Assembly (NCBI GenBank): GCA_040954595.2
Contig: CM082587.2
Span: 10,917,403 to 10,981,402, forward strand
Source: Balanoglossus misakiensis
Lineage: Eukaryota > Animalia > Hemichordata
Direction: 5' to 3'
Length of the DNA: 64,000 nt
The translations under genes and the position numbers were made by a program. Below the pieces are notes generated by a model, which saw nothing but the letters and a program-made list of their open reading frames with translations, ran no database searches and was not told where the DNA came from. Positions 22,901 to 57,000 of the stretch are shown piece after piece; the stretch's first letter is position 1, and each line of letters begins with the position of its first letter.

Positions 22901-23276
22901 ATTCTGAGTGACTGACACTTGCTCGAAGCAGCTTGTAGATTACTGATGAATGTATGTAAGCCCCAACCCCACCGCCCCTTCCTACTTCACGAGACTTCAC
23001 TTCCAATGTGTAATCTTGCATATTATAAATACTTAAGTTATTTGGGTCCCATACTTCAGAGATTCCAATGATAGCGAATTTGGACTTTATAATATCTTCA
23101 TATAGTAATTTTAAGGCATCAACGTTTCTGTGTAATGATCTGACATTTAGATGGGAAACACAAAATGAATTATAAAGCTGGGGGGGGGGGAAGTGTTCAT
23201 CAAAATCACAGGGTGGAAGGGTATGATGACTTACATTGAAGAGTGGTTCTTTGAGTTTTATTGTAGTCTTACGCAT
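19977..23276 (-). mobile_element. CR1-group (L2/Crack-like) LINE, degenerate copy 2
   Basis: Same element as 8211-11180, broken into several ORFs by frameshifts but retaining the GVPQGSVLGP and FADD RT core (~21120-21240). Confidence 0.9.
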
Positions 23277-30028: not shown

Positions 30029-33000
30029 TTAGAAGTATCTGTCTCCGTGACTCTCATGAAATAGTTCATTTCTACTCTTAAGAGGCCTTGGTCTCCATTC
30101 CTCACTTCCACTGGCACTACCACTGTCGCCACTATACATGGGATTGTAGTGATAGATTTCTCTGAAGGCTTCCTCATCTTCCACACTTTCCCCTGCCTTG
30201 CTATCAACATCATCTGTATCATCAAACCAATGGATATCCATAGTTGCCTCTTGTTCTTCCCAGCCTGGATGTTTCTTTCCTCCAAGAGCACACCTGAATG
30301 TCAAATAGTTGAACATCATCAATGTGGGATTTGTTGTGATGTGGTTACTACTGTAGAATAACGCAGGTGGTTGTTGGACACTTTGCGGTCTGGTCGCGTG
30401 ACTTTGCCTTGTTAGCCGCCATGCATGTTGAACGCAAATTATACCATGATGCACTGCAGTTACCCTATACGCGAATAGGTCTATGCATGAACTCTTTGAA
30501 TAAATTTGCTTCCACGATACAGATGTGATTATTTTTCACGTTGCCTCATGCATGTATGGAAAGATACAGGTAAATTCCCAGTTTTCTGATGGGCAACATT
30601 TCTACAGCTGTCTCGATTCTACTCTGGTAGTACTAAATAACTTACCGTTGGTACATGAGTAACATTATTACACCAAGCACTAACACAGCCGCTAAACCTC
30701 CCGCAACACCACCAATGATGACAGCTGTGTCAACGGAGGAATCTGTAAGAGTTTAAATATTTCTATTTGTCACGGGGGCGATATGCTATGATAAAAGCAA
30801 GAAAACCATTCATTATGATGCTTAACTATTGTAAAATGGTTAGTTGACCAAAAATCTAGTTATACTGCAGATGTTGCAGTTTCACCATTTTCACAAATAT
30901 TTTCAAGACAACGTAAACTGTAATCATGTAGATCAAACAAATGTGTAAACTTTAGTGAATATTGTATTTTATTCTTGAGTTATTTAAAGACAAAGAAATG
31001 TATACACACCTTTAACTTGCATTGGTATTCTCTGGCGGCAAGTTTCACCTTGATATTCATCAGTACATTTACAAACAGGATTGCCATCACTGTCCTTGAT
31101 GCAAACAGCATTGTTTGAGCAGAACCCTTCACATTTGTCTAGACACAAGAATAAAATCACATCACATTATTCTACCTGACGAACCATTTGTATTAGACAA
31201 GAACTAAACCCACTTGTAGATTGATTTCTTACAAACGGAATGGAAGTTGTGTGCTGTCGAACGTTGATTCACTATATATCCACATGTACCGGGTGAATAA
31301 CAAAACAGTGTCTTGTATCAAACATAATTAATGGAAAAAGGGCAGCAAGAGAGATACTTTGTCCCTTTAATAGCATAAAATCAACAGTAGTGTCTACGTT
31401 TTAGCTGTACATATTTCTGTTGACATTTCAGTTGTAGATAGTTACATACCTGTACAAGTTATTCCATCACCAGTGAAACCAGTTTTGCAAGTGCATTCAT
31501 ATCCTGGTACAAGATTCCTGCAAGTGGCATTTGGGTGACAGTCATCCAGACCAAGACGACATTCATGTGCATCTAGAAAACAAAAATTCTTGCAATGTCT
31601 TTAACTGACCACCAAATAAAACTATGGGATCTTCATACATATCACCAGTTAAAGGTATACGGTCACCTATGGAAAATTAGCTATAGTTACCATGGCAAAA
31701 GGAGATCTAGCCAATCACAGATTTTCAGTGGGTGGCACATGCAAAAAGGAGCGCCACCATATGTTCTTTAGAACTCTCATATACTCCATTTCAGCCATAT
31801 ATGGGCATTTGTAAATTGGAGGTGACTGTATACCTTTAAGTTAGATGACTACCCAGATGCAGTGCATGGTTATCACATTCCATAGCCTAACATGTAGAAT
31901 TCTGAGAAAACAGTATTACAATATTGTTATTTCCGTGAAATTTTCAGAAAAGGTGTTAAAAGAGGAGCATTATTAAATTATATAAAAATATTGGATCACA
32001 CAACATATCAAATGATACTCTAAATAAAGAAGAAAAGTTCTTATAATGAAGTGTTTGTGTCAGATTGAACAGTTAAGGTTGATCTCCACAAGCACTTAAT
32101 GCATGTTATCAGTTCTATGATTATGAAAAATTATTCCTACCATCACATTCTGTTTCATATAGGGCACCCTCTCTGCCTGTAGTGTAGCCAGTTGGGCATG
32201 GTTGACAAGCATCCTGGTTGAATTCAAAGTTATATGTTCCATCAGGGCATTTCTCACATCTATAGGACTCCTGATTCAAGTACCAACCAACATTGCAGTA
32301 AGCTGTTGATGGAATGGAAAAAGAGCATAGAATAAAATTGGAGGACTATCATTATTCTGAACAACTGAGGCACAATAATACAACCTTCAGTTCAGTACAG
32401 TTGAGATACAACATGAAAAGTTGTATACATAATACTTACGAACATTACAATCTTCACTTAAGGTTGAACCGACTGTTCTTGTGGTGAAGCCAAATGGGCA
32501 CGGCATACAAGATGGCTGAAGTTCAGCATTTGATCGATAGGTTCCCATGGGACACGACTCACAAGACCCATTGACACTAAGTTGGACTCCCACTGATTTA
32601 CATACCTCTGGAATTGAGAAGATTAATTTTTTGATATTCACGATTATCTGCTTTTCACTCACGTGAATTTGTTAAACTGTTGAATATGTTACATATCTGG
32701 CGGTTCTAAAGTAAAAACCTACTCGGAAAAAAGTTTACTGGATGCCGAAATATTGCTTGCCTGTCACTAACAAATGATAACGCCATGGGTACGTCACATG
32801 GCCAGATCATGTGATTGATAGTCAAGAATAGCAAATAACACAAGTACCTACCCTGACATTGTGACTCATCAGTAGCTCCTTCAACTAATGTAAGCATTCC
32901 CTTTGGGCAAGTATTACACACAAACTTTCCTTCTTCTGATTGCCAGAATCCAATGGGGCAGCTTTGGCACTGAGAAGTCCCGTTGTCAAAGTAGTGACCA

Positions 33001-36000
33001 ACATCGCACCTCTCTGCAATAGACATCATTGTTGAAAAATTATTTTTTCAACCAAAGAGATGAACATTCCAATTGTCATTCTGTCCATATTGGATCACAC
33101 CACAATAATTTGATATATACGTCACAATTCCCGGCAAGGGGTATGGGGTTTTATCGGGCCAGTGGCATGAGTGAGGCTAGATGCTAGTTTTGGAAGCAAA
33201 GCGGACAAAATACGGCTAGATACTAGGCTATGGCTGTGGACGAGGAGGAGATATTGCCTTCTGTTATACATACCAAAACACTGCAAGATGGATAATGATC
33301 TCTTTCCCCTGGTGACTCCATTATTAGGGGACCAAGCGCCCTCAGGCGCTTGGTCCCCTTCTGTTATTGCTGGAGTTTTTCTTCTTTCTTCTTGAGTCGT
33401 TTTTTTGCTCCCGTTTTTCTCTGAAATTCCGGCACCTGCGCCTATGAAGTTTGGCACGATGATTGGGGCCCATGAGTACTAGTGCACCTGCCCTTTGAAT
33501 TTGTAATTAGTCACGTGACTTGGTGGCTATAATCGAGCGAAATTTTCAAATTGACCTAATTTGCACGTTAATGGGGGAATGTACATTCTTTTCGCGATTT
33601 TTGTAGACCATGTGGCCAAAATCCCTTGTGCCAAATTTCAAGGTCCTAGGCTACGTCGATTTTGAGAAGAAGATTTTTGTAATATTTTTCGCATTTTTGG
33701 TGGGCTGAGGACGGACACTGGGGCATCGGACTTTGACCGTCATTACGTAATGTTGTGGAGATCTCATTAGCAGGCTACTCACTTCTGGCGGGTTGCCGTA
33801 GTCCTTGGAAAATCGGCTGAAATACGTAAACAGACCAGTGATTATTTTCCACGGAATGAATTTTGGGATAACACATTATCCGAGTTCAGGCTGTGTTAGG
33901 GCGTTTTATTGAATTACGCTGAGTTTGTTAGCTGTTGCCGTTCAAATGTTTCTATCTAGACCTGGCTACACTGGTGAGGTATTTAAGGGTGTCGAAAAGA
34001 CAAGAGTGAGGGGCCAAAGTGCGGGACACGCACAGTGCAATAAATGGCACTCTGCGGGAATTCACGCACAATGCAATATATTCGACTCTGCGGGACTCTT
34101 GGCGCCCTCAACGATATGAAATGAAACGTTTAAATAGCGTTACGTCATGCATATAGTTTGGCAGTACTTCGTTATTATAGATTACATTTCAATAGAGAAT
34201 GGATCGCAAACAACGTCGTCGATTTTTTGAATCCCATCCATCGAATGTGCGAAGAAAGAAGCGGCCACACCAGGAGATCGCTAAAAGCGTAAAGCGCCAA
34301 CGTTTTGAGTAAGTATATATTAGAGTTGCACTGTTTGTAACACATAGCGTGCAGTATCATGTGATCGTGAAGGAGACAAAGGCCGGTATTAATTTGCCCT
34401 TTTCAGGTACGAAAGTCGCTCATTAAATGTCGGACAACAGGCGTTGATAGGTGTCATTAATTTAATTCTTTTAATAGTTTGATTGATTTATCCCGGCGGG
34501 GTGATCGTGTCCTCCCTTCTCTCTCAGGGCAAAACTGTATTAACCGCCATCTTGAAAACCGCATTGCATTGTGGGACGACTGGGGGGAAGTACCTGAAGA
34601 CCTGTGTTTTCAGCAACTACTATTTTATTTCAAACCAAAAAAATCCTGCCAATGAATACTCTGTAAGGGTAATCAGTCATAGCAGGGGAATTGATCTCTG
34701 GCACTCGATCACCAAGACTGGAGACCATAGACTGGAGTTAGGCCTTCTAACTAGGGTTTTAGTTTTATTTTTAACAAAGAAAAGCACAAAAAAATGTGAT
34801 ATCAGGATTTAATAGAAGTTGTACACAAACATTTATGTGTTATAAAAATTGAGTCCCAAATTTCAAATCAATCAGAGAAAAAAATGATTTAAGACCAAAA
34901 ACGGCCAAAATTGCCCCAAGAACACAAATATGGAAATTTCACTGATTTTTACAACAGCTTACTTTGGTTATGTATCCCTACTTTAAATTTGGCATGTTAT
35001 CAGCAAACACCTGATAGGAAGCCAGGTTTATGGGGGACTTATCTGCCTTGTGTGTACATTACTTGAGATAAAAATGGGGGGGGGGGGAGGTTAGCTGCTG
35101 GTAATGTAATGGTTTGTATATCATTTTAGTCAAATATCAATTTCTCTAGCACTGCCTCTCTAAAATTGCCATCACACATGACACTTTATTGGCCTATTGT
35201 TAATTTCTTTTTACATTTCTGTGTTTAAATATGGTTAGGTCAGATCTGCTTTTTTAATTAGTATCATATGTGTTGAGTACAATGAAAATTTATTTAGTTA
35301 TTGATATGCTCTTTCAAAACAATAGATACTTTTTTAGAGGAATCAGTGAACATAAATGTTTATATGTGACCAAGTTTTGTTTGTTTCTCTTCAGAATATC
35401 TTCAGTAGTTGGTACAATTGGCAATAACGCAAGGGAAGAATACCTGCATCAGTTACAAGCCCAGAACAGAAAGTGGGAGCTATCATCTGGCAATACATAT
35501 GTATTGTCAGATTGTGAAATTGAGACTGGGCAGTTGATATCACAGCACGTTATTGTCAAACGTAACCTGCGATTTTACGGTGTGCAGAGTACGTCTCAGG
35601 AGTTCCTGTATACATGTTCATGTCAGGATGGGTTAATCCAAGCAGCCAGATTATCCTCATCTCAGCGTGGGATACCAGAAAACTTTGATGAGTTCATCAC
35701 AACTGAAAAAAATAAATACTGTCTTCATGCCTGGGCAGCAAGTGAACTTTTTCCTGATGTACCTGTTGAAGTGGACCCCAACTCTGCAGACACATCAGTC
35801 ATTGTTGATTGCCTGTCATTGAATCCGTTCCTGACTAGTGTTACCATAGGTGAAGACACACATATAATATCTCTGAGGAACAAACATGTTGGTAAAAAAC
35901 TTAGCTGTGAGACCTGCGCATATGGTAGAACCACATGTGACCATGTTGAAGAATACCGAATATGGTGTGGACAAAATGAGGTTGAGATTCAAGAAACTGA

Positions 36001-39000
36001 ACGCACTTTGAAAGAAAGTACTTTCCCAAGCGTGTCATTTAAGCCAATCTCATACCCTCTTGATGACTCTCTGAAGGTCAAGTTTCAACAACAACAAAGT
36101 GGAGAACAGCCTGTACAGCATAATCTAATTCCCGAGATACCAAGTGCTGGCCCCCATTCTACCTGTCAACATGGACATGCATGGGATGTTGATGACCCTG
36201 TACAACAACATTGGCTTGTTGGAGATGCCATTGTGTATTATGAGACACATTCACTTCAGCATGTTTATGTAGAAGGAGAGGAACAAACTATCAAGGGTAA
36301 GTTAACCTTATTTACTGTACCATTGGTTTAAGGTTGCATTGGATCACTGCCATTTTTCCATTAAAATGTTTGATTGATACAAGACACCGTGAATATTATT
36401 CTACATATGGCTATATAGTGAATCACCGTTCGACCACACGCAACTTCCATCCCACTTATCTAATGATCTCCTACATGTATTGGTAATTATATTAACATAG
36501 TCATTATTTTCCTTGCAGTGTACTATCGTCCAAGTGTTGGTCCATGTATGTGCAGGTTGCATTATGATGGGCATGGAGATTTGATGTTTAATCTGAACAA
36601 CAAGGACATTATTCACTACAGTTTATTACTCTCCTACCTTCATTTGATGGTAGAGTCCAGAAATCCGTTGGCATCTTTCCATAGGTAAGTACATATACTT
36701 TGTATTTCTAAAAATATAATCATTGACTAGGGAACTTATGTATTTGGTAGCTCAGCAAGGAAAGATCAATACTGAAATTACCCATTAATACTTGAACGAA
36801 GGGGTGGTAAGCAAAATTTTTGTCTAAATATTCTCTAGGGAAGGCTGTTACCCATATAGTCAGTCATCAAATTTCAAAAGTTCATTGTTGCTTTTACCAG
36901 TCCGATAATTGTTTAGACCTGTCACATGCTCAAGAGCGCCATTTTTCCCATGATATAATTTACAGGGTGATTAGGAAGCCCACCAAAAACACATTTCTTG
37001 ATGTACCAGGTTGTATTCTTTTCACCCCCACCCCCCATTAATTTGGGGGCTCTTATCAGAGAAGGTACAGTATAAAAATGTTACAACAGATAAACATTAT
37101 AAACTTTCTTTCACTCCTGGCAATCACCTGACATTAATCTTTCTTTCTGTTCTTAAATAGGGCCTACTCTGAAAAACATGCTATGTTATCAGAGTCTGTT
37201 TCTTTGAAATACCACAAACTTAGGAATGCCTGGAATGCATTTGCAAGGCTATTGGACATAAATTATGGCACTGTATACCAATGCCCTATATGTGAGCTGC
37301 AGCCTTCTGTTCTGATATGTGATGGTACGAGTGTAGGACTGAACAAACGCCTCTTGCAAGAACTTCCAGACCCAGAGAGGGCATCACGTGACCAAGGCCA
37401 GCCTTTGGATATTGGTACACGTCACTGTGACCGAGTGTATATACCAAATGCCAAGGTCAGGAAACTGTTATTACAGTTTTGTAGTACCAACAAGCCAGCT
37501 GAGAAACCACTTACACCCCTTGAGTACACAGTGATGATTAATTTGATGAGAAAGTAGTCACCTCCATTCGCTTATGGAATTTCTCCAACTCGTCAGTGGA
37601 CACGGAAGAAATCTGCTAGCCCCAAAGGAGTTCTGCCAATTTCTTCAAGATTTGTCAAAAAACTCGCCTGCAAGTGCTCTTCTGCAATTGACCCCAGATT
37701 CACAGGCTAAACATGTCATCAAGAAAATAATACACGGACTCGATATATTTGACAGCAGACATCAAGGGGAACTTGAAATTGTACAGCAAGATGCTCCTCT
37801 TATTTTCAAATTGCTGTCACATTTCGGGCACAATCCTCATGGTATCCCAAGAGAAGTGCGTCGCCTTCTTAGAGATGTGTTGTTACGAGTGAGGAGCTCA
37901 TACAAAGTATGTAACCAGGGACCTGATAGTACTGTGCAATATCCAGATCCAATAGAAGACCCTGTAGCTTGCTTCCCTTGCCTACCAAAGCTTCATGGGT
38001 AAGGATATCTCACTGTAACTTGAAAGTTAATTGAAGTCTGTCTTAAGCCTCTAGAGCTGCCACTTTTTGCATTATTTTCATTACTTTTGTGAATTTTCAT
38101 TTCCCACTTAGACATACCTTTCTGTATACATGTTTATATGTATTCAAAATGGAAGTTTATGTACCCATGTGCTATGCATGCCATTGCCATTCTCTTAGTT
38201 ATCATGCTTTCACTTTTCATTTAATAGGAAACCTCTCTACCGGCAAGACAAAGACAGACTTGCACATGGTGATGACACTTGCCAAAAGATCTCCAACAAA
38301 CACCCTACGTTATCACCTGGCATTTTCACTGTGTTCTGTCAACATGGGTTCTGCTATGGCTTCCAGGCTATGAGGCAAGTGGAGTCACCCGAAGTGCCAT
38401 TCAACATTATGACAACAAGACTAAGACAACCTCCAGCCATTGTCATATATGACAATGCATGTCGGCTGCATCAGTACTGTTTAAATCGGTAAGTCTTATT
38501 TCAACCTTGATATACTGTTTTGTATGTTAATGTGATTACCACACTTCTGTTAAACTTAAGAGAAGGGTGGCTAAGCTTTATTTTATGCTCAATTATGCTT
38601 GCCCACCCTTGCCTTTAACTCAATTTTTTTTGCGATATGATCCAAGATGGTGGTCTGGCAGCCACTTTGTTACAATTTTTTCATATTGAGATGTCAGCTT
38701 GTCATATGGTTAATTTTGTGTTTTACCCCCCCCCCCCCCCAAAAAAAAAAAATCAAGAATTTGATGAATTGACGTTGCTTACTCCTTTCAGCAAGAATAT
38801 AAAGATTAGAACTAATGAAGTGATTTTTTGTCTTTCTTCAGAGAACCAAACTATTTCATGAAGACAGTTTTCTTAGTGGATCGTCTCCATTGGAAAAACC
38901 ACATTGGGTGAGTATCAGATTAAAAAGCTCAAAAGAATATTTTTCAAATCATCTATGTTTGGCAATTGCAGAGCTTAGTTGACTGGAACAGCTAAGAAGT

Positions 39001-42000
39001 ATACGACCAGTTAACCACATCATATTTGGAGTCAGTTAGGAGGTAGGAGACAGGGAAAGGATTTTGCTCTGATAAAATCAAATTTCACAATGGCAATCAC
39101 CGATTGGTCAATTCTATTATTCCACTCAGAGACATAACCCGGACTGGTGACATAAACAGGTTTGCTCAAATTACAACTTCTGACTGGCTCATAAGCTCTG
39201 TTAATCAGGTATCTGAAATGTATTCAGGGCATGTGTGTCAATTTTCTAAGGAACGATATCAATTTGTCTGAAAAAAATTGTTTATGTTTTATACTGTTAA
39301 AATTTTCACAGAAGAATCTTCTTTTATATTTTACTGATCAGTTGTTCATCAGGTTATAGCCTGCAACAGTACAAGGACAACAGAAGTTTGGCCAACATAA
39401 ATACCCAGATCTGTGAGCAGAGCAATGCAGCATTACAGAAAATTAAGGCACAAGTATCTTATATGACCCCAGATAATTTCATCTTCCATGTCAGACTGTT
39501 CCTTGCAATCTGGAATCAAAAGAAGAAAAGTCACCTGAACTACTTGTAGTTCAAGGTTTTAAAATAGATAAGTTTGTTTTTCCGATTTTTCTATTTAATT
39601 GAACAGAAAGCAATGACTGATATAAAGTATAAGGTCTTTTGTTTGTTCTGAAAACCGCACTTTAACTGTCTAGCTCGGACATTTTTTCAAATGAGTTATA
39701 GCTGAAACCATCTGGATTTATATTGATTTAGGACCATTCTTGCTTTCATTGTGGTCAACTTACATTACACAGAATACTATTAATTAATTCTCTGACTGTT
39801 TCAGTTGATTGTGTGACTGCAGCATTAGACACTTCAAGAAAACAAAAACTATATTTTTCCAGATTTATGAACGGTAGACCATCATCACAGTCACTCCCCA
39901 TGACTGCCGTCATATAAAGTCTGTCTGTTATTTTGTTTCAGTTTTTGAGAAGTACTGACAAACTGTCCATAATGAAGAGGGCAAATCCATGGATGATGTG
40001 TTACACGAGGTAACAAGATGACCCATATTCCCAAAGACATGAGATGCTTGGAATCATGCGATTTTATAACTGTGCTGATGAAAACGGTAAAAGATAACTT
40101 TAACATGATGCTTTATCATCTGTATCAGTAAAATTCTTGCTGCATGGTTTTACATTGCTGCTGTGCTGACAAAACAAAACAAGATGCATAAGAGAAAGTG
40201 GTGTTTTACAGTTTATTGTATTTGTTACTGACGTGTCGAATTTCCATTTTGTTATCAGAATGAGAATGTAGACCAGCCATATACATCTATGGGGAGATGG
40301 AATGTATAGGAGGTGTGTTCGCAGGGTACTAAAGAAGAAATTCAGTCATCAGAGGACAACTATGGAGGTGTTTTCATGGAAGTTTTTTAGCGTCTCAGAG
40401 ACGTATGCTCTGCATACACATACCAAACGGCCCTTCTCAGGGCCACCACATCCTTAAAAAAGAGAACTACCGTACACCGATAAACTTGTTAATAAAGAAG
40501 AAATGCACAAATCATTACACAGGCACACATGTATATAAAATTGAATAAAGAAGTACACCACACACCCGAGGTGGACTTTAGTGTTATTTTAATATACCGT
40601 TCATATTTGTCAAAAACAATCACTACTCAAAGATAACTGTCAAAAACAGCGTCAAGGACACTGGTCCCATTTAGGGATTAATCAAGAAAAAGTCTACACT
40701 GAAGTACATAGACAGACAGACACACACACACATAGAGAGAGATCAATGGGCAAACACTGACCCATAAGCTGCTAATGGCACGTGTACTGTACATACACCA
40801 AATAGAACAGCCAAATTCCGAAATACCTACGATTTGATTCCATTACAATTTTAAAGAACCCCATCCCATTAACTCACAACTTAAATTCTAAAGTACATTT
40901 GTAATCAGCCCAACACTTTGAGAAATATAGTTTTTTCAAATCAAAATTGGAAAGTATGCACCATAAATACAAGATATTGCCCCCACAAAATATTGACACT
41001 TTCATCATAGATTTTGTAAATCATTATGAGAACACACCTGGTAACCTGCAAATCAAATTTAAAAGCAATGGGGGTAGAGGGTTCTGAGAGTTTGGACCAA
41101 AAATGGCAAAAATCACCCCAAAATATACTATTGAATTCTTACCATGATTCAAAAAAAAAAAAAAATGAAAAACCTCTACACACCCTCAAATGATTTTTGT
41201 TATGAATTTGAAAAGTTTTTTTGTAAAAGAAGATTTTGGGAAAAAGATAAAAAATTCACCAAAATTAGTCATTTTATGATATCACCACAAAAAAATCTAT
41301 ATGATGTCTCAATAAAGTACACACCACTTTGCAAAGCAATCTGACCAATAATTAAGTTGCCGAGTTTTGACCAAATTCCCATTTTCCCAGCTAAAAAGAC
41401 AAAATCCCGCAGAATACAACAGATTGATAACTGCGTTTTGAAATGTACATTAATTAACACAGAAAGACAAGAATGGGAAAAAGAGTTAAAAGACAATGAA
41501 AATATCAACTCATAAGTTGAGTTTTTGACAAATTAAGCCCAAAACTTGTTCTGCATGATCGATTTGCAGGTTCTTGAACTGTTTTATGTGCTGGTGCATG
41601 AACTGGAGAACCACATTCACACTAACTTCTGATGCTTCAAATGCAGTTAATAATCTGTTGTACTCAGTGGGATTTTGTCTTTTTAGGGCCACTAGATGGA
41701 ATGGGTTTGTCCGACGCTTTTTTTTTGGAATTGGGCAACTGAGCACCAGGTCAAGAAGGTCCCCTGATTTCTTCATTTGGTGGAGTTTCTTCAGGGTTGC
41801 CAGCTCTTGTTGCAGTTCTTCATCATCTTGAACTTTTCTGGTCTTCCTTCCTGACCGTTGACTGCGGCGTGGTGGTAGTGATGCTGGTTGTTGGGTTTGT
41901 GCTGCTGGTGGTGATTCTGGCTGTTGGATTTGTGCTGCTGGTGGTGATTCTGGCTGTTGGATTTGTGCTGCTGGTGGTGATTCTGGCTGTTGGATTTGTG

Positions 42001-45000
42001 CTGCTGGTGGTGATTCTGGCTGTTGGATTTGTGCTGCTGGTGGTGATTCTGGCTGTTGGATTTGTGCTGCTGGTGGTGATTCTGGCTGTTGGATTTGTGC
42101 TGCTGGCTGTTGCTGTGGTAGTGTGTAAGACACTGGTGATAATTCTGCACTTGTGTTGATGGAACTGTTGGCTGATGGAGTTGCTGGCTGGGGTGATGGG
42201 TGAATGGGATGTGAACCTGAAAAGAAAATGAAATATAGAAGTGTATTGGTTGACATTATTCAATAGTTTTACTTAAGTCATCAGAACACAGGTAAAACAT
42301 AAAAATTAAAAACCTATTGACTACATAATGGCTTTTACCCCTTTTTACAGACACATAGCAAAATTTGGTATTTTTTAACACTGAGGTATCCCTCTCTCCA
42401 TACAAGAAGTACATGAAACAACCACTGAACAAAGGTTAAACTATAATAATTGTCCTAGTCACATTTAAATGACTATGTGTATTCAAATACAAAATCATTA
42501 ACACCATTATTATTAAATAATTATTATATTATACCGTATATTGATGGTGTAAATCACGCTATTTGATTGGTCGAGACACGACACGTGACCGTGATATATT
42601 AGCCATATACCACAGTCATATATCATAGTCAAAGAAAATGCCCTTTTAAAATGTTATATGCAAAGTTTCAATATACTGGCATAATATAATAGCAATAAAA
42701 CACCCCAGCCATGGTATACCACTCGATTTTGACCAGTTCAACTCCATATACGCACTCGCTATCGCTCGTGCGTATATGTCGTGAACTGGTCAAAAATCTC
42801 GTGGTATACCATGGCTGGGGGTGTTTTATTGCTTAAGTAATTGCAAAATTCATAATGACAATGATAGCAATCAAACTGACCAGAGTGGAACAAACTGCTT
42901 GTAACAGGAGAGATAAATACTGAATGGACAGATAAAGAGTGATTGTTTTGATTAAAGGATTGTAAGCAAGAAATTCAGTCTGTATCTCTCCAGTTACAAC
43001 CCGTTTTCCCCTGTTGGTTGGCTTGTTGTTTAAGTATATTTAAGTATATTTAAGTTTGCTAAGACATATTAAATCACGATCACTCCACCACATGGTCGAG
43101 GTTAAACATAGAACTTGGAGAGGTTTCACTGTGATAAAGAAAGTAATACATTGTAATAGGGATATTTCTTACCAAGATCCTCAAAATTTATTGTACTCAG
43201 ATCTTGTGTGAGGTAGTGAGGATCTGATTCATGCTGTATGAATGATAGCACTGCTCCAACTTCTGTGTTTGTGCCTTTATAGAGAAAAGATGAAAATGAC
43301 CTTTGTAAATATTGTAGAACTAAATTGGGTAAATGTACACATACACATGACTGAAAATGCCAAACGTTAAAAACACAAAATCCACACTGACGGCTCAAGA
43401 GGTCAGTACACCACGTATCGTCTAGTATTGAAAGTTGTTGTTTAAGTACAGTCTACTTTAACGTTTTAGACGATACTAGACTCTAGTATCGATAGTATCG
43501 ATACTATCGGATATTTTTGAGGTCCGACATAGTCGGGAAGCAGGCAAAGTTGTTGTTAAAGTGCAGTCTACTTTAACGTTTTAGACGATACTAGACTCTA
43601 GTATCGATAGTATCGATACTATCGGATATTTTTGAGGTCCGACATAGTCGGGAAGCAGGCAAAGTTGTTGTTAAAGTACAGTCTAGTTTAATGTTTTAGA
43701 CGATACTAGACGATAAATATCCGATATCGTATAAATGTGCAATGTCGCGCTGTCCTCTATTTTTGCGCTGTTACTTTTCTCGGAGCACACTCAATATAAA
43801 ATTGTCACGTATCGTATGGTGCATTCAAATGTATTAGATCCTGAAAATTGCCAGCGGAATCATATAAACCTACAAAATGATGTCAGTTGGCTTATACACA
43901 GTTCCTCCACAAACATAACTAACATATCGGGAAAATCATAGATAGTAGGGCGACTGCCGCTTGCTTCCAAGGGGAAAAAACGCAACTCTAAGGTGGTCAC
44001 GTGACCATAATGCGCATCCTACAGCTAATCCCCTCATTCGCACGTCCGAACAATGGGCGATTCCCGACCGTCTTTCTTGAGGGACTGTGGCTTATAAATT
44101 TGACATAGGTGAATTCGACACGACAAACCCAAGTCCAAACTCCCGACAGTGTCTCACATGACACGTACGATGCATCGCAAACAGCAAAAAAAAAAAAAAA
44201 CAAAAAAAAACAAGAAAAGCGCAACAAGTGATGATATCGAGGAATTTACTTCGAATTTGAATCTGCACGAATAATTTTACTGCATGATGCGAATAGAACA
44301 AAAATGTATGTACTGGACCCTGGTGTATGATTTTTACATTTTCTTTTTTACAGTCAAGGCTAAAAACATTTACCTTGTAGACTATGACTCTTCACGATCT
44401 ACATTATAGTTGCAATAAAAGACACGCTTACCTATAATAGAATGCCCAGCAATATCGTTTTCAGGTTGTGGATATTGGGTTGCACCCTCACCAGTCGGAC
44501 AATCAGTTGGCCTACTGACTTCATTATTGCCTGAGAAAAATTGGGCAATATCGCTTTCAAGTTGTGGGTCTCGGGTAACCGCTGCACCCTCACCAGTCGG
44601 ACAATCAGTAGGCCTACTGTCTTCATCATCGCCTGTGAAAAAGTGAGAACAAGTTTAGTAAGCCAAAATATTCTCACTGTTTTGCAGAGAAGTACTTACC
44701 AAGAGACCAGCTGAACAAAATTAAAAACCACTTTTAACAAAAAAACGTCATTTTCGGTACTGTGGTTAATTAAACTTTGTCAGTCGATGTTCGTTTTCAA
44801 GGCCTTCATCTCAAAAGAATGTATAGCTCGTGTAAAACGGATGATTTTGTTTATTGCTGAATCTATACATTCTCAGGAGTAATGTCTAGCAAACTTTCAC
44901 CATTCTAATTAAATAACCGTTTAAATGGTACGTACCTGTCAACTCGACCTGTCCATAATACTGGTAACATGACTTAGCAACGTCTTTCATGCGCGTGACC

Positions 45001-48000
45001 CACGAAGACGTTGAAGCAACCACTTTACCGGGCCGACTGGGGTTGCAGTACGGTGTTTCGGCTGGCCACCATACTGGCTTCATGTCTGGTCTGTCCCACA
45101 AAGGTTGGGCACGATTTGTGGTGCATTTTACCAATGCTGGTAAAAGTTCTCTTACATCATAGTAAGTGAACGAAGAGAGCTTCTTCTTATGGTGGTTTCT
45201 TAGATCTGGCAGTACGCTTTCTGGGGGTTGTTGATCATTATCATCACTAGGATGCGCTGGTACAGTCAGAAATGTTGAAACGTTTGCTTCAAGGGTTCTG
45301 GCAAGTGGCTGGGTGCCATGGATGACAAAAATCCGTTTCTTGGTGACGGGATCGAAAAACGTTGCAACAACTGCAGCTTCAATCTGTGTTTTCGTGTGAA
45401 ATTTGTCAAAGTGTGCAGTCAGTGACTGCCACTGTTGCCTTTGGTACTTCTTTGGGAACTGCATCATGACATAGAGAAGATCGGACAGCCCGGACAAGTG
45501 AAAAATAAAAGTCTTTTGTCCGACGGGCAAGTGACCTTTACCCTGTACTAAACGTGCGAGAACAGGTGTGTTTAACACTAATTGTATGCAAATTGCCGCG
45601 TAGAATGGTGTTTTATACCAAAACGCGCTCCCCACTAAAATATCTCACAGAAAAGTTCTAGGTCGACGCTTCGTGTCTGTTGATGAGCTACAGACGGTCC
45701 TCAACGAAATCGAGGCTACCCTAAACGATCGTCCCTCACCCATCTTTCGTCAGATTCCGAGGATCTTCCACCTTTGACCCCTTATTACATCGCCGTCCTA
45801 TCACCACATTACCATACTACACCGTTGATGATAGCGAGCTAAATGACCCAACTTTCGGCAATAAGAACGCGAACTGGCAAGACTAACATACCAGACCTAT
45901 TATAAAACTATATCATTTGAGTGCTGCACTGAACGAACGTACGATATTTCGGTACATTGGCCTATAATTATGAATATGTGTGAGTTGTTGTAACCACGAA
46001 CTTAATCAATTTCTGATAACTTTAAGTCTCGCCCGACATCACGGCCTTGAATGGCGTTACGGTGTACAAGTCTGTGTGCTGGTCACCGGGTGACGACCTT
46101 ATCGGTAGGAAGTTGTTCGAGAAAAAACTGCAAAATGAATATCATATATGGAGTAGGCCTACAACTTGGGAAAGCAAAAGGTTGTCAACTAAGATGTCAG
46201 TCAACAAGGTTTTAAAATTTGTTTCTGTTGAGCGCTATAACAGAGTTCACAAATGTAGGCAATAATGATCTCCACAAGTTCTTCAGTCAACACGCTACTC
46301 TCATGGAATAAAACCACAGAAAAATACTAGTAGTCAAATTGTCTGTGATAAAACGAACAAGGCAATAACTGAAAACAGGTGTAAATGTTGTTCGTTTTTC
46401 TCACTCCGATTATCGAGCTATTAGTGCTTTTAACCATTCTACTCGGGAGGAAATACCACCGTGAGATATAACTTCCACAGTATTTGTCCACAGTGATTAT
46501 TTATGTTTTAACTCGGTCGAATGTGACGATGAAGTCTTAGTTGAACTTAAATTTCTGTGCCAGTAGGTATACTTTTAGCATAAGTATTGCATCCGATGGG
46601 TCATCATTCTAAATGAGACTGCTTATAAAATGAAACGGTCTTATAAGTTTATTTTCCCTTCTACCGACTCATCCTACATGTCAACCCGATCATAGAGAAA
46701 TATTAGTTGAGTGGCGCAGATTGCCTTGCGCAAAATGAGCGTACCGATGAACCCCGCCCAGACCGATTCACATAGAGCATCTTAGCATCACGTAGACATG
46801 AAGGAAAACCCTTATCAGTAAAACAAAATGAACCCAAAGAATACAACACATAATAAAAATCTCACAAAAAGGGTCAAATAATCGCGGTTTTATCACGTGA
46901 GCCCAAAAACATTTCAAGATTAGGCACAAATGCAAACGTATACACGAAGAAAACGGCATTTCAAACGAGATTAAAAGCAGAAGCGAACGTAATACAGTAC
47001 GAAGTATGTACATGTGTAGGCATCGGGGGCACCCCAAATAAGATAATAAATAAACGACAAACACTATTGGATATGTTAGGTTTTTATTGGTACAACCTTG
47101 AAAAAAATAATTGTCGCAATATGATTGACAGGATCACAGTCACTCCAGGATGAACGACAAAATGATGCAACACCATTAACATTTTTATCAGCAAACATTT
47201 TATTTTAGTCCCGGTGTTGTGCCGAATTCGGCACCATGCCGAATACGTCCCCGCGCATGCCTTGACAAACAAACCATGGCTTCTAAGGGATAAGATCGGC
47301 AGGTAAAGCTGCCGATTTCAGCCCCGTTGCCGATTAAGACCCCAACTAAAGTCATGTTAACTATTGAAAGCTAAAAGTGATGGTTTCGGCCTAAATGGGT
47401 GAATATCTGCCCATGGCCCTGATTTGTTGGTGGAATGAAATTAAATCCTTGCGGTAATGCAATGTCCAAGTTTACAGTGCAGTACAATGTACATTCATGC
47501 ACAGCCTTACATGCACGTTGGATGGCAAAACTTTCACACAAGAAAATGCAATATTTCAGACACATGTTACTGATGACCCGAGCTTTTACTCTTACATAAG
47601 TTTGCGTGCATGAACCATGTTTTGGTTTGCAGTGGAAATTCTAGTCGAAACTACTGCCAACTTAGGGGAGGCATCGGCCGCGCGGTAAGGGCCTGGTCAG
47701 AATTAACAAGGGGGGAGGGCCGGTGCGATTGGGGGGAGGGTCACCATTTCTCATGCAACGGTTTGGGGGAGGGCCGCTACGTTTTGGGCACTTGTCAAGG
47801 GGAGGGTCATTAATTTTTGTGCAAGGATGACACCGATAATGTCAAAAATTTGAAGTGTTACAGAGAAATCCTGAAAAGAGACTTGCGCTCATATAGGCAC
47901 TCCTGTATGGATGTATTGACATCCCTTGTACTACAAAATACATCACACAACTCACAAAACATACACATGTACCAGTATGTGATCTTAAACCCCCTAACCC

Positions 48001-51000
48001 TAACCCTAACCCTAATTAGGGTCCAACGGGCATTAGGGGACCTGAGATTTCGGGCTCTAACCCTACTGCCTTGCCAATGTTTTTTTTACCCCTCCTTTTG
48101 ACACAATGTAGGTAAACATGTAAACAACAACAACAAAAAATATCAACAAAAACAAGTCAACCCTTCCATGTTTTTTAAGGTCGAGTCCCCCAATGCCCAA
48201 CTTATGTCTTGTTTGGCCAAAAAAAGAGGGTTAGAAAAAATTGTTTGGATTTATTTTGTTATCTTTTAGGTTGTTGTTATTGATTTTGGTCCCCTGTCTA
48301 ACCCCAGCCTTTAAAAAAAAACATTTTTAGAAAGGCCAAAAAAATGCCTTGGTGGGTATATGCAAGTTGCTCCAGACGGCAAGTCCAAATTGTGCATGGA
48401 CGGATTTCTTGGTAGGTACTTTTAAATTTTACATAAACCATAACAAACTATATATTTTCAGAAAGGTCTCGGCGAGTTTTATAACATACTAAAATTTGAC
48501 TAACTTTGAACTTGACCTTGAAAAGTTATTGCGGAAAAACCTATTGAAAAAAACATACTTTTTAGGGTACGCGGTGTCACCCCCTTAATATAGTTGGAAA
48601 CCACTGAAAATTACAGGATAGATTGATAATAAGTTGTTTTAATGTGGTGTGGTGAAAAAATTTTGAAATTCGAAGGTCAAGGTCAACTTCGCCATTGCTT
48701 ATAGTTGTTGGTTTACCTATGTCGGATTTCATTATCCTTTGACCTTTGACCTCGAAATTTGGTACACAAGTAGAGTGTCTATCTATAAACTCTTGACAAA
48801 AGTTACATTTAAATATTTTAACATAAAAGCACTTTTTTGACCAAAAAGCAAACTTCTGTAAATTAGCTGTAAATTAGCTTTTTTTTAATATACACTTTGC
48901 TTTTTTAAGATTATTTTTTTATTTTAAGCATTTCAAAGATGAAACTTTCCAGAAACCATCATGAGATGTTCTAGAATATAAAAAAGTTTACACTTTTGAG
49001 ATTGGACGCCATTAAGTATTCCAAATGTTGTTGCAAAATAGACTGAAATAATGCCCATAGACTTAACATGTATAAAAACAAAAGAATAATTTTTTTGGAC
49101 ACTTGGAAATTTTTTTTTAATGTATTTGTTTTGTCTTTTATATATGATATAGAGTAGTAATTGCTCTATTCAAAACACTATTTGGTTTAAAGATCTGATT
49201 TCATTTAGTCTTTTATTTTAATTTATTCTATTGTAATTATGCATGTTCAAGTATAGGGAAAATATTCAGTTTTGCAGGCAGGGCAAAGGGGGGGTAATTA
49301 AACAGCAGGGGATTATGCAATGCAAACACTTGAACTGGCCAGTAACGTTTGAATTCCTCATTTGCATACAGTTTTTCAACTTTTTTCAGAACGAAAGTTC
49401 AGTAACTTGCAACCCATTTCTGACAATTATTTCACCCCAGGCACATTACTGGTACTATGAATGTACTACATGTGATTTTTCATGAAGTTTTATCGAGAAG
49501 AATTTCTTTACTTCCACTGACAAAATTGTGATCACGAAATTCAAAGTGACATTGAAGTTAAAAAATCAAAAAAAAAATATCTGCCATACCCACACAAAAA
49601 TTAACCCCCTCAGGTTTTAGAAACATTATTAAACTCCTCTATTCATAATTTTGTCATGAATATATCCATGCCGTGGGTCAAGGACCACAATTTACAGTGC
49701 CATAGGTCAGTCCTGAGAAGTCAGTCAGCGTGAATAGTGTATAGACTCCGTATGTAATATGCTAATGAGAGTTAACGACGCGTTGAAAAGGAAGCCATTA
49801 CGTCATGGGTTAACATGCGTTGACCTACTTCAATGCATACACATATGGCAAACACGGCTGTACTCGTCGATGGCGAAGGCAATTTTTACACCGTCATTAC
49901 TCCACAACGGAGCGGCTCACACTATTATAATTTCACGGTAACTTAGTTCAATATCTTCCTAACCTACCCAATTTTTTTCAAGACAAGAAATCTTTTCCGT
50001 GAGTCAGGGACCACAATTTCAATCAACATACCGAAACTGTCTTTCTCGGGAACGCGTCGTTAAAACTTCACGAAAAATCATCCTATCATTGACTGTGGTG
50101 TTTCATACACGTCTTAGAAAAATGGATGCACTACGATCACTTGAAGTACCGAAAATCTCCGTTTGAAAATTTTTCCAACCGGCCGTAACTGCCACTCAGT
50201 GACGTTCACATTCAAATAGATCTCTTTGATGTCACCGCCGTAATTACCCCCCCTTTGCCTTGCCTATTTGAGGTTAAGTTTGCATTACTTTTAACACACT
50301 TAAAATCGACGGTCCCAGACCTCGGACCACAGGTGCTCGTGGACTTGTGCTGTCACAGGGGAGATATTCAGAATACTAGCAACAAATGCCAAACTAGCAA
50401 CACCGGCTTTCTTTGAGGGGGCAACCGGCTTTCTTTGAGGGGGCCTACACGTTATCTCTAAAATTGAACGTATATGTACAAGAGAGGTTTAATAGCGATG
50501 CCAAGAAGAAGAAAAATACCAAGACAAGAGCATGACAACAGAAGTTTCAATAGTTTATTTGGCACATAAAAGGCGAAAATTGCGTGCACACTGTACAGAC
50601 ATCGCATATAAAATAACAACACATTTTGATGAGTTTTACCGTGTGTTTTCGGAACGCGAATGCATATAGCAAGGAGAAGACACGGAACGTGCACACGTAC
50701 ATACGCATGGCCTTTGTTTCTAGCTCGTGTTCATGAAGCTGCAGCCTGTCATATGGGTGATGGCACATACATGCTCTGCAGGGTCCGTGAAGTTTGTTAC
50801 TTATTCCTTATTCCTTATTCCTTATTCGAATGTGAAGTTTGTTACTTATTCCTTATTCCTTATTCCTTATTCGAATGCGAAGTTTGTTACTTATTCCTTA
50901 TTCCTTATTCGGATTATGAAGTCTGTGACTTATTCCTTATTCGGATTCTGAAGTCTGTGACTTTTTTCCTTATTCAAAGCTTATTCCTTATTCGAAATCT

Positions 51001-54000
51001 GAAGTCTGTGACTTATTCCTTATTCGAAATCTGAAGTCTGTGACTTATTCCTTATTCGAAATCTGAAGTCTGTGACTTTTTCCTTATTAAAAGCTTATTC
51101 CTTATTCGAATCTGAAGTCTGTGACTTATTCCTTAATCGGATTCTGAAGTCTGTGACTTTTTCCTTATTCAAAGCTTATTCCTTATTCGAAATCTGAAGT
51201 CTGTGACTTTTTCCTTATTCAAAGCTTATTCCTTATTCGAAATCTGAAGTCTGTGACTTATTCCTTATTCGAAATCTGAAGTCTGTGACTTATTCCTTAT
51301 TCGAAATCTGAAGTCTGTGACTTATTCCTTATTCCTTATTCTTTATTCGAATGCGAAGTTTGTTACTTATTCCTTATTCCTTATTCGGATTATGAAGTCT
51401 GTGACTTATTCCTTATTCGGATTCTGAAGTCTGTGACTTTTTTCCTTATTCAAAGCTTATTCCTTATTCGAAATCTGAAGTCTGTGACTTTTTCCTTATT
51501 CGGATTCTGAAGTCTGTGACTTTTTCCTTATTCAAAGCTTATTCCTTATTCGAAATCTGAAGTCTGTGACTTTTTCCTTATTCAAAGCTTATTCCTTATT
51601 CGAAATCTGAAGTCTGTGACTTATTCCTTATTCGAAATCTGAAGTCTGTGACTTTTTCCTTATTAAAAGCTTATTCCTTATTCGGATTCTGAAGTCTGTG
51701 ACTTATTCCTTATTCGAAATCTGAAGTCTGTGACTTTTTCCTTATTCAAAGCTTATTCCTTATTCGAAATCTGAAGTCTGTGACTTTTTCCTTATTCAAA
51801 GCTTATTCCTTATTCGAAATCTGAAGTCTGTGACTTATTCCTTATTCGGATTCTGAAGTCTGTGACTTTTTCCTTATTCAAAGCTTATTCCTTATTCGAA
51901 ATCTGAAGTCTGTGACTTTTTCCTTATTCAAAGCTTATTCCTTATTCGAAATCTGAAGTCTGTGACTTATTCCTTATTCGAAATCTGAAGTCTGTGACTT
52001 ATTCCTTATTCGAAATCTGAAGTCTGTGACTTATTCCTTATTCCTTATTCTTTATTCGAATGCGAAGTTTGTTACTTATTCCTTATTCCTTATTCGGATT
52101 ATGAAGTCTGTGACTTATTCCTTATTCGGATTCTGAAGTCTGTGACTTTTTTCCTTATTCAAAGCTTATTCCTTATTCGAAATCTGAAGTCTGTGACTTT
52201 TTCCTTATTCGGATTCTGAAGTCTGTGACTTTTTCCTTATTCAAAGCTTATTCCTTATTCGAAATCTGAAGTCTGTGACTTTTTCCTTATTCAAAGCTTA
52301 TTCCTTATTCGAAATCTGAAGTCTGTGACTTATTCCTTATTCGAAATCTGAAGTCTGTGACTTTTTCCTTATTCAAAGCTTATTCCTTATTCGAAATCTG
52401 AAGTCTGTGACTTTTTCCTTATTCAAAGCTTATTCCTTATTCGAAATCTGAAGTCTGTGACTTTTTCCTTATTCAAAGCTTATTCCTTATTCGAAATCTG
52501 AAGTCTGTGACTTATTCCTTATTCGGATTCTGAAGTCTGTGACTTTTTCCTTATTCAAAGCTTATTCCTTATTCGAAATCTGAAGTCTGTGACTTTTTCC
52601 TTATTCAAAGCTTATTCCTTATTCGAAATCTGAAGTCTGTGACTTATTCCTTATTCGAAATCTGAAGTCTGTGACTTATTCCTTATTCGAAATCTGAAGT
52701 CTGTGACTTATTCCTTATTCCTTATTCTTTATTCGAATGCGAAGTTTGTTACTTATTCCTTATTCCTTATTCGGATTATGAAGTCTGTGACTTTTTTCCT
52801 TATTCAAAGCTTATTCCTTATTCGAAATCTGAAGTCTGTGACTTTTTCCTTATTCGGATTCTGAAGTCTGTGACTTTTTCCTTATTCAAAGCTTATTCCT
52901 TATTCGAAATCTGAAGTCTGTGACTTTTTCCTTATTCAAAGCTTATTCCTTATTCGAAATCTGAAGTCTGTGACTTATTCCTTATTCGAAATCTGAAGTC
53001 TGTGACTTTTTCCTTATTAAAAGCTTATTCCTTATTCGGATTCTGAAGTCTGTGACTTATTCCTTATTCGAAATCTGAAGTCTGTGACTTTTTCCTTATT
53101 CAAAGCTTATTCCTTATTCGAAATCTGAAGTCTGTGACTTTTTCCTTATTCAAAGCTTATTCCTTATTCGAAATCTGAAGTCTGTGACTTATTCCTTATT
53201 CGGATTCTGAAGTCTGTGACTTTTTCCTTATTCAAAGCTTATTCCTTATTCGAAATCTGAAGTCTGTGACTTTTCTCTTATTCGAAATCTGAAGTCTGTT
53301 GTCACGACTGAGTTTGAACGCTCATAGATCCTTTCTATGATTACGTAAGATGTCATTCACTTGTATTGACATAGGTACTTGACCCAGAGTAAACAAGCTT
53401 GTGTAATTGATACATGTCAGAACTCTATCACTTGCTAAGTTCATGTTTAAGAAATATTAAGATGACGTGTTCCTTTTATGACTTAAGGGACCGTTCAGTT
53501 TTTACGGCCGGGGGGGGGGGACGAAAAACCAATCGAATGTTTATAAGTTCATGTATGTTAGCATCGTTCTGTGAGGAAAGTACTATCAAAGGTCACCGTA
53601 GTTCACCCCAAAATTGGGCAAAACAATTGGACCCCATACTAGTCTAGATCCAACAAAAACCAGACCCCTCTTGTGTAAGACTCCATTATGTGCTCCATCG
53701 GCCCCCCAAAAGCCAGGACTCTAACTGCTGTGGATGCTGAGATATGGGAAAGAAGATCAAAGGTCATCCAAGGTCACCCAAAATTTGGGGAAAAATTTTG
53801 ACCCCATACTGGTCCATGTCCAACAAGAATGAAACCTCTAGCCCTATTGGTTAGCCTGGAATAAGTTATGCACATAATTAATGAGATAAGCAGGTGTCAC
53901 AGGTAACCCCCAATTTTGGCTTTTCAATTTTAGTCCCAACCCTCCAAACGCCAAGTCTGTACCTGCTCTGGGTGCCGAGATATAGGAAAGTAGGTCAAAA

Positions 54001-57000
54001 GTCATCTGAGGTCACCCAAAATTTGGGCAAAATTGTTTTCAGATTTTCGTCAGATTTCGAATAAGGAATAAGTCACAGACTTGAGCTTTGAATAAGGAAT
54101 AAGTCACAGACTTCAGAATCCGAATAAGGAATAAGCTTTGAATAAGGAAAAAGTCACAGACTTCAGAATCCGAATAAGGAATAAGTCACAGACTTCAGAT
54201 TTCGAATAAGGAATAAGTCACAGACTTCAGATTTCGAATAAGGAATAAGCTTTGAATAAGGAAAAAGTCACAGACTTCAGATTTCGAATAAGGAATAAGC
54301 TTTGAATAAGGAAAAAGTCACAGACTTCAGAATCCGAATAAGGAATAAGTCACAGACTTCAGATTTCGAATAAGGAATAAGTCACAGACTTCAGATTTCG
54401 AATAAGGAATAAGCTTTGAATAAGGAAAAAGTCACAGACTTCAGATTTCGAATAAGGAATAAGCTTTGAATAAGGAATAAGTCACAGACTTCAGAATCCG
54501 AATAAGGAATAAGTCACAGACTTCAGCTTTGAATAAGGAATAAGGAATAAGTAACAAACTTCACATTCGAATAAGGAATAAGGAATAAGGAATAAGTAAC
54601 AAACTTCACATTCGAATAAGGAATAAGGAATAAGGAATAAGTAACAAACTTCCATCACCTTGCTCTGCAGACATCACGTTTTTTGCAGTGCATTCATCCT
54701 GTGAACATGTCATAGTCCTGCCCGGAAAATCGTTTGCGTGGATTTTGATTTGCAAACGCGTCGCACGTCAACAGTGCGATCTTGTATCAATGAATGACCT
54801 TGACGTCATAACACGGGTTTTCCGGAACAAGCATAGACGGGATAACTCACTTCCCGCTCGAATTAGAACGCAAAGATGTGCATATGGCGTGAGTGCAGCG
54901 ACAGTCTCCAGCGAAATTGTTGCGCGATGGGATGTGATCCGACACGCAGGGAACGGACCTTGCTCTGTTGGTCATTGGGTTTACCACTTACGAATGCAAC
55001 ATCAGGACAGTAGAAAATGTCGATTGTGGGTGGTTGATCGCCCGATCATTTATTATTTTCAACGCCCGAATGTCGTCGGACATCGTCAAAAACACGATCG
55101 ACCTCCTCGAAATGCAACATGAAAGTAGAAAATGTCGATCGTGGGTGGTTGATCGCCCGATCATTCGCCCGAATGTCGTCGGACGTTGTCAAAAACACGA
55201 TGGAACTCCTCGAAATTCAAATGTAATCAAAGCCAAGGGTCCTCCCACATCTTGTGCAGTGTGCGTATTCCCGCAGATTCGAATATATTGCATTGTGCGT
55301 GAATTCCCGCAGAGTGCCATTTATTGCACTGTGCGTGTCCCGCACTTTGGCCCCTCACTCTTGTCTTTTCGACACCCTTAAATACCTGCACTGGTTAACA
55401 TTCAATGTATTGCGGCAGCAGACCAATGATTTTCTTGCACGAAGGGAGTATGGTACCAGCAATAATCAGAGATCAGGCTTCTTTGCCGTTCAACAGTTCC
55501 TACTTCAGTCGTGACGTTGCAACTGAACGTTCAGTATGGGGGTTGGCCCGCAGGTGGCCGTGGGGGTTATCAGATCGCCCGTAATGGCACGCAGCTTCAT
55601 GCAGCTGTATGGGACCAAAATAATACGCCCGATTCGGGGGTCACCTGTGACACCTGCGTAACTCAATTATGTGCATGCGTAATTGTGGGGTCAATGAAAG
55701 GGATGCTAGTGTGGTATTTGTTGCAAATGGATCAATATGAAGTCCGATTTTCCTGTCAAGTTAGGCTGCATTCACAAACACCTCAGGAGGGGGGGGGGGG
55801 GCAGGAGAATTGAGGCGGGGATTTGAAATAATTTTGGGACTGAAAGGGCGGGGACTTGAAAACTTTGACGACTAAATATTTATTTTGAGTCCACAAAAAT
55901 GCAGTTTCGCGCCCTTTATTTTACAAAATTTTCTAATTAAATGCAGCTTTGAGCTCTGTATTTTATAAAATTTTCTTACGTGCACCCCCTCCCAAACCCA
56001 CCCCCTTCAATTCTCGGTTTACAATGTCTCCCAACACAGGATACAAATACTTAAAAAATGGGAGCGCTGTTTTTCTTTTTTTACAAGATAGATACTAGGT
56101 GATGTGTTTTGCTCTGTGAAAGAAAATGGGGAGGGGGGATTTCAAAATTTTGGCAGTTCGGAAGGGGGGGATTTGAAATTTTTCGGGTTGTGTACGGGTG
56201 GCATGTGAAAATTAGCGGTAAAACAAATTGAATTCTCCCCCCCCCCCTCAAGAGGTGTTTGTGAATGCAGCCTTATGGGCGATCTTATGTGACATTTCAC
56301 CTACTTTTGCTTAGTGAGCATCCACAGCAGATGCATGCAGCTTTGGCGTGGGGGGGGGGGGCATATACGGATGGGACCATAAAGATATACCAAAGGCGGG
56401 GTCACCTGTTGCACCTGCCTAAGTCATTGATTTTGTACATTTAATTGGACACTAAGGCTGCATTCACAAACACCTCTGGAGGGGGGGGGGGGGCAGGAGA
56501 ATTCAATTTTTTTTACCGTTAATTTTCACATGCCCCCCTCAACAACCCGAAATATTTTCAAATCCCCCCCTTCCGAACTGCTAAAATTTTGAAATCCCCC
56601 CCCAATTTTCTTTCACACAGCAAAACACATCACCTATCTATCTTGTAAAAAAGAAAAACAGCGCTCTCATGAAAAGAATTTGAAACTGATGTTTCCCCTT
56701 ATCAGTGGGTATTAAAACTGAACATAATTGTTTCTATTTTTTTTAACTTAGTATTCTGTGTTGGGAGACATTGTAAATCGAGAAGTGAAGGGGGTGGGTT
56801 TGGGAGGGGGTGTCCCCCTCCCACGTACGAAAATTTTATAAAATACAGAGTTCACAACTGCATTTTAATGAACCCGGCAAAAGCAAATTAACTCAACTAC
56901 CGGTATGTTGGGGAGGACAAATTTAACCGTCGCTGCTCAAAGTTATCATGGGGTGGGGGCAAGTCCCCTGACCTGGGACACTAGATAAAACAGTCAATGA

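Follow-up and report, generated by a model that had tools for sequence, protein, structure and literature searches.

The 64,000-nt stretch of Balanoglossus misakiensis contig CM082587.2 analyzed here (referred to as the window; all coordinates count along its whole length) contains a divergent gene related to the animal regulator NRF1. This NRF1-like gene lies together with a transposase gene of the KDZ (Kyakuja, Dileera, Zisupton) type inside a cut-and-paste element of 21,413 bp (33976-55388). The initial annotation had called the gene transposon-borne, and this is almost certainly correct, as inverted ends and a target-site duplication enclose both genes and the pairing recurs at other loci. 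The element is made up as follows:

33969-33975: left target-site duplication, CACTGGT (7 bp), identical to 55389-55395
33976-34095, plus strand: left terminal inverted repeat, 120 bp, starting GAGGTAT
34199-39549, plus strand: KDZ (CxC4-type) transposase gene of ≈850 codons in seven predicted exons (34199-34308, 35395-36296, 36519-36684, 37161-37998, 38228-38488, 38842-38907 and 39342-39549)
45467-41510, minus strand: NRF1-like gene, four exons
55269-55388, minus strand: right terminal inverted repeat, 120 bp, starting CAGGTAT on this strand
55389-55395: right target-site duplication, CACTGGT

The inverted ends are identical at 118 of 120 positions, which indicates a young insertion, and the chance of a 7-bp identity for a fixed pair of flanks is ≈8e-5. 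An 8-bp duplication was also considered, but it required a mismatch and was dropped, since another element of the same kind (L057, see below) shows the same C/G asymmetry at its ends. Exons of a host gene flank the element (32136-33047 and 58055-60432) and none is found within it, which places the element in a single intron. This host gene is encoded on the minus strand and resembles SVEP1 in combining a Sushi domain with ephrin-receptor-like cysteine repeats.

Single exons of the transposase score below the Pfam cut-offs for both KDZ (E 3.5e-4, 20.8 bits, cut-off 26.6) and CxC4 (E 1.8e-3, 18.6 bits, cut-off 26.9). The protein has 31 homologs, many of them with PF18758 or PF18717, and the related transposase P0174 attains the CxC4 cut-off. 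The motifs ICDGT, YDNAC, DRLHW and CEQxN are all present, and the putatively catalytic CDGT, YDNAC, D-H and EQxN motifs are conserved in 25 relatives. No match was obtained when the transposase profile was compared with solved structures. The tblastn alignment is collinear, and a frame check revealed one frameshift near 37550; exon 1 was predicted from the sequence alone. Because of the frameshift the window copy is probably no longer autonomous.

Zisupton transposons in the strict sense carry a CxC7 cluster as well as SAP and SUMO-protease domains, none of which turned up when five related transposases and exons of the window were scanned. The element resembles KDZ transposons in having a transposase of several exons with weak similarity to CxC4 and KDZ, in its inverted ends and in the length of the target duplications, 7 bp in the window and 8 bp in L057 (PMC12730594; PMC9297572). 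Duplications of 7-8 bp are expected for KDZ transposons, and the 7 bp of the window differ from the 8 bp given for Zisupton and Dileera (PMC12730594). Unlike fungal Kyakuja, which has CA..TG termini and no inverted repeats, the window element ends in 120-bp inverted repeats and has CAG..CTC termini. Accessory genes have been described before in the KDZ group (PMC12730594), but here the accessory gene is NRF1-like and not TET/JBP or F-box.

The NRF1-like gene and its product

The exons and repeats of the NRF1-like gene are:

45467-44936 (532 nt), minus strand: exon 1, MADS-like dimerisation domain and helical DNA-binding domain
44632-44432 (201 nt), minus strand: exon 2, duplicated acidic linker, without homolog support
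43274-43173 (102 nt), minus strand: exon 3, LSTIN motif
42216-41510 (707 nt), minus strand: exon 4, Q/P repeats, RRSQR basic motif, tail and stop
41873-42106, minus strand: 33-bp tandem repeat coding for (AAQIQQPESPP)n, 7.1 copies, 98%
41391-41686, strand unassigned: hairpin repeat resembling a miniature inverted-repeat transposable element, 48-nt arms (88%), fold z -8.7, overlapping the final ≈58 codons of the frame

As had been proposed from fragmentary open reading frames, the four predicted exons (532+201+102+707 nt, 1542 nt in total) can be joined through three phase-1 GT-AG introns into a frame of 513 aa and a stop with zero internal stops, each of the six splice sites being canonical. 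The duplication in the acidic linker and the 33-bp Q/P repeat were both located as well. The lengths of exons 2 and 3 are divisible by three, and the open frame is therefore a weak test of the model: among stretches bounded by AG..GT, 1 of 15 with a length of 201 nt is open, as are 2 of 9 with a length of 102 nt. Exons 3 and 4 are supported by their LSTIN and RRSxR motifs, each of which recurs in five of the nine relatives compared, and exon 2 has no counterpart among these. The three closest relatives (P0001-P0003) begin at the same place as the window frame. At the other end the relatives stop ≈25 residues past RRSxR, whereas the window frame continues for >100 residues, the last ≈58 codons of which gave no match in homolog searches or in an Atlas search. 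The C-terminal tail is thus probably a read-through into the hairpin repeat, and the description of the gene as intact holds for the reading frame only.

Exon 1 matches the Pfam family PF10491 with 54.7 bits (gathering cut-off 23.5, E 1.5e-14; residues 7-176 against profile positions 32-208) and the NRF1 chain 8K4L_A with E 4.9e-14. A structure model built on a 10-sequence alignment reached a predicted local distance difference test (pLDDT) score of 84, compared with only 33 for a model without alignment. NRF1 (8K4L/8K3D) ranked first for this model with Foldseek (E 1e-7) and topped the list with VIA-align (Z 13.2 and 12.7). Profile and predicted fold therefore agree on the suggested resemblance of exon 1 to the NRF1 domain, and the structural comparison proposed with it gave NRF1 as the top match. 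The DNA-binding domain alone superimposes on 8K3D with 2.7 Å over 97 residues (Z 12.7). After NRF1, the next matches to the first domain are MADS-box proteins (SRF, Z 6.0), and EIN3 and GTF2I match the second domain weakly (Z 4.2 and 4.4). In the Atlas, exon 1 was placed with an unnamed cluster (0.90) and with PF10491 clusters (0.88 and 0.86), the recognition score being low.

Like NRF1, Erect wing and P3A2, the window protein combines a MADS-like dimerisation domain with a helical DNA-binding domain, and it contains the PxWWP and W...CY motifs. By analogy with the NRF1 structure, it is likely to dimerise through the former and to bind the major groove through the latter. The conserved core residues are retained. 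NRF1 binds a palindromic site as a homodimer. In NRF1 the bases of TGCGC are read by R206, N242 and R244 (PMC10810270). The window protein keeps equivalents of R206 and N242 (R106 and N142) but has Ser for R244 and Gln for K221, so that its DNA specificity may be altered. It further differs from NRF1 in its low identity (26%), in beginning near NRF1 residue 99 without the N-terminal region, in exon 4, where a Pfam scan gave no match to the NRF1 activation domain, and in belonging to a multi-copy, long-branched and transposon-resident family. Natural variants like these, with changed base-reading residues and repeat motifs of their own, could be used to map the DNA code of the NRF1 fold. The RRSxR tail is a predicted nuclear-import signal.

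Recurrence of the gene pair

An exhaustive search with exon 1 identified 150 related proteins. The closest are RefSeq models from acorn worms, namely five genes on five contigs in Ptychodera flava (best identity 48%) and two in Glandiceps talaboti. In P. flava, the KDZ models XP_070537884-887 are followed by the NRF1-like XP_070537888, and in the brittle star Amphiura filiformis the NRF1-like XP_072021476 is followed by the KDZ model XP_072021477. As the RefSeq accessions are consecutive and the contigs equal in length in both cases, the two genes probably lie side by side in both species.

The third example came from a scan for the transposase. Locus L057 holds a compact element of 5,442 bp, which is bounded by an exact 8-bp duplication and inverted ends of 245 bp and has subterminal arrays of 60 bp. 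Just two genes were found in this element, a KDZ gene and, head-to-head with it, a two-exon NRF1-like gene of 274 aa, which matches a profile built without L057 with E 2e-10 and the sequence A1 with E 1.6e-5. L057 and the window element have the terminal signature 5'-CAGGTAT...ATA(C/G)CTC-3' in common, and both have repeated motifs at either end, of the TGCG type in the window and of the TTCCA..TGGAA type in L057. Loci L057 and L058 are segmental duplicates with 13 kb of common flank (99%), and the pair was therefore counted as one insertion; the two differ in four codons, two of them silent, which says nothing on selection.

The L057 record is titled as a bacterial metagenome-assembled genome, yet its spliceosomal introns identify it as DNA of a host animal, possibly a sponge. 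The Nitrospirales-titled genome (16 Mb; L057-L058, G001 contig 17 and others) includes megabase contigs in which eukaryotic transposons occur along with spliceosomal introns, so that host DNA has been binned as bacterial. Two stretches of ≈236 bp at other loci (L089, 7748-7983, and L090, 7965-8200) are 65-70% similar to both L057 ends and probably represent non-autonomous derivatives of this element.

Together, these loci define a lineage of KDZ transposons with two genes. Its ends are clear in two or more genomes, and two deuterostome phyla have probable members. Gene models listed as "uncharacterized" or "Ewg-like", which would otherwise be counted as NRF1 paralog expansions, hereby gain a testable role. 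The mechanism of KDZ transposition is poorly understood, and the compact 5.4-kb element, in which the ends are known and two proteins are encoded, opens it to testing.

Our literature search, which did not cover Iyer 2014, Bohne 2012, their supplements, Repbase or the supplements of a brittle-star preprint, found no paper on the pairing of KDZ and NRF1. "Nrf" does not occur in the searched part of the supplement of PMC12730594, and the available portions of PMC9297572 and PMC12062965 do not mention NRF1. In the corresponding portion of the brittle-star preprint, NRF1 appears only as a motif and in one reference.

Proposed role of the NRF1-like protein

With moderate confidence, we read the NRF1-like gene as the second of two genes in a KDZ-type transposon of 21.4 kb. 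Its product would likely dimerise and bind the end repeats, and so provide the transposase with a DNA-binding partner. This is based on the presence of the same gene pair in the compact L057 element and probably in Ptychodera and Amphiura, which suggests that the protein belongs to the element's own machinery. The protein would dimerise through its MADS-like domain and bind the repeated end motifs in the major groove through its helical domain, the RRSxR tail would carry it into the nucleus, and once bound to the ends it might recruit the transposase. A precedent is found in PIF/Harbinger elements, where a Myb-like protein binds both the element ends and the transposase and enables nuclear import (PMC9179366). 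As in that system, a conserved transposase is accompanied by a separate, fast-evolving and small helical DNA-binding protein: the transposase cores are 55-71% alike, the NRF1-like partners 29-39%. Both the transposase family and the DNA-binding fold are unrelated to those of PIF/Harbinger, however, and the partner role demonstrated there is inferred here. A scan of five related transposases revealed neither SAP nor HMG domains.

Several observations weigh against this role. We surveyed 59 KDZ loci in 35 families, 15 of which have a locus of at least 6 kb. Among these long families the NRF1-like gene is clear in one, weak in one (L038, E 2e-5 to 4e-4) and absent in 13, and most KDZ elements thus do without it. 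A KDZ neighbor of an NRF1-like gene, for which the initial annotation had proposed a search across invertebrate genomes, is present or probable at three further loci in three genomes. A neighbor could be assigned to one of the five P. flava genes and to neither of the two in Glandiceps, and a KDZ profile search returned no further hemichordate models that could be their partners. The closest transposase (P0156) and the closest NRF1-like protein (P0001) are encoded on separate contigs. The linked transposases do not group to the exclusion of all others (4 changes, with 29 of 500 shuffles as low), although all of them fall in a 57-row subtree (support 86, unstarred, 87 columns) outside which the eight placeable long negatives lie. 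In G001, ten small remnants, seven of them KDZ fragments and three resembling element ends, were without an NRF1-like neighbor (0/10); a PF10491 search found no match in G001 nor in the controls and is uninformative. The orientation of the genes also differs, being convergent in the window and head-to-head in L057. Finally, the internal 36-bp repeats of the left end contain five TGCG words against 0.33 expected; since the words lie within repeats they are not independent, and they could be sites of the transposase itself.

It is conceivable, though on the unlikely side, that the NRF1-like gene is instead long-kept regulatory cargo, which drives or limits expression of the element or shields it from silencing and acts outside the transposition complex. 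The Q/P- and acid-rich regions resemble activation domains, and the L057 genes use a common head-to-head promoter. In the window the left end lies ≈100 bp from the predicted transposase start, and binding to it could therefore amount to promoter control. Accessory genes such as TET/JBP in fungal KDZ elements (PMC12730594) and the many long KDZ loci without an NRF1-like gene fit this explanation as well. It is opposed by the motif arrays, which are found at both ends and not on the promoter side alone, and by the smallest element, in which the NRF1-like gene is the sole second gene found.

The window copy might also be a dead or dying pseudogene of a transposon-borne family, with a 513-aa frame that is partly accidental. 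The frameshifted transposase, the nested insertions just upstream, the tail entering the hairpin repeat and the lack of a homolog for exon 2 all point in this direction, but four open exons, six canonical splice sites, the retained core and the youth of the insertion indicated by its ends make it improbable. Divergent NRF1-domain proteins without a known transposon link do exist, some with CXXC fingers, and neighbors are known for few relatives, but the idea of an independent host NRF1 paralog that was captured locally just once, or happens to lie between the inverted repeats, is highly improbable and already largely refuted by the three further loci in three genomes that pair, or probably pair, both genes, the multiple copies over five contigs in P. 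flava and the absence of host exons from the element.

Origin of the family and other repeats in the window

A domain tree was calculated from 37 of the 152 domains, in which "canonical" NRF1 rows were picked by motif and not by annotation. The NRF1-like proteins form a separate, long-branched clade apart from NRF1. The four linked domains are found on one side and the 18 motif-defined NRF1 rows on the other in 200 of 200 bootstrap trees; the branches are long, however, and support for the dividing branch is low (75/73). Judged by this tree, the NRF1-like proteins are not orthologs of NRF1. A grouping of the deuterostome family with vertebrate-like NRF1 was rejected by the approximately unbiased test (p 0.005), and this rejection together with the split in the tree suggests that the association between KDZ and NRF1-like genes is likely old. 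The initial annotation had proposed either host capture or a mobile-element reservoir of the domain. A recent capture from a vertebrate-type NRF1 lineage is disfavored by the same test. The tree is unrooted and does not separate an ancient capture from a mobile reservoir.

THAP, BED and MADF domains were domesticated from other transposons. By a similar route, the two-domain NRF1 fold might be an old mobile-element protein, an end-binding partner in a KDZ lineage since early animals, from which host NRF1, Erect wing and P3A2 were domesticated, but we regard this as an unlikely, speculative scenario. The discovery of the gene pair in itself raises the question of whether NRF1, which regulates mitochondrial and housekeeping genes and is essential in animals, was derived from a transposon protein or was the source of one.

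Pattern scans with exon 1 of viral and metagenome contigs gave no relative, and neither did the KDZ alignment against viral contigs. When longer proteins were searched with exon 1 through a word index, no relative was found among 818 candidates. Two other groups of NRF1-domain proteins were seen. Six proteins of 771-1319 aa (P0103, P0143, P0088, P0107, P0117 and P0142) contain a lone NRF1-type DNA-binding domain, in two cases along with CXXC zinc fingers, and constitute a separate uncharacterized family. The P0115 cluster comprises 15 near-identical members of a 145-aa NRF1-domain protein on many contigs, which suggests another multi-copy and possibly mobile family.

Three further features are nested in the 21.4-kb element:

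45650-45900, plus strand: frameshifted integrase-end-like fragment, recognized in translation, presumably from a BEL/Pao retrotransposon
49276-50265: 990-bp element with 25-bp inverted ends
50787-54652: foldback-like block with inverted 32/50/82-bp repeat arrays around a 0.7-kb core

Outside the element, the window starts with an 86-bp satellite (1-7091, 82.5 copies, 99% identity). An open frame of 335 aa on the minus strand (16791-17798) matches DUF3504 (E 1.7e-11) and phage integrase (E 1.9e-6), and we take it to be a Crypton-like tyrosine recombinase. Near-identical broken copies of a long interspersed nuclear element with endonuclease and reverse transcriptase are located at 8543-11198 and 20309-23294 on the minus strand, and a further reverse-transcriptase frame is found on the same strand at the window end (62054-64000).

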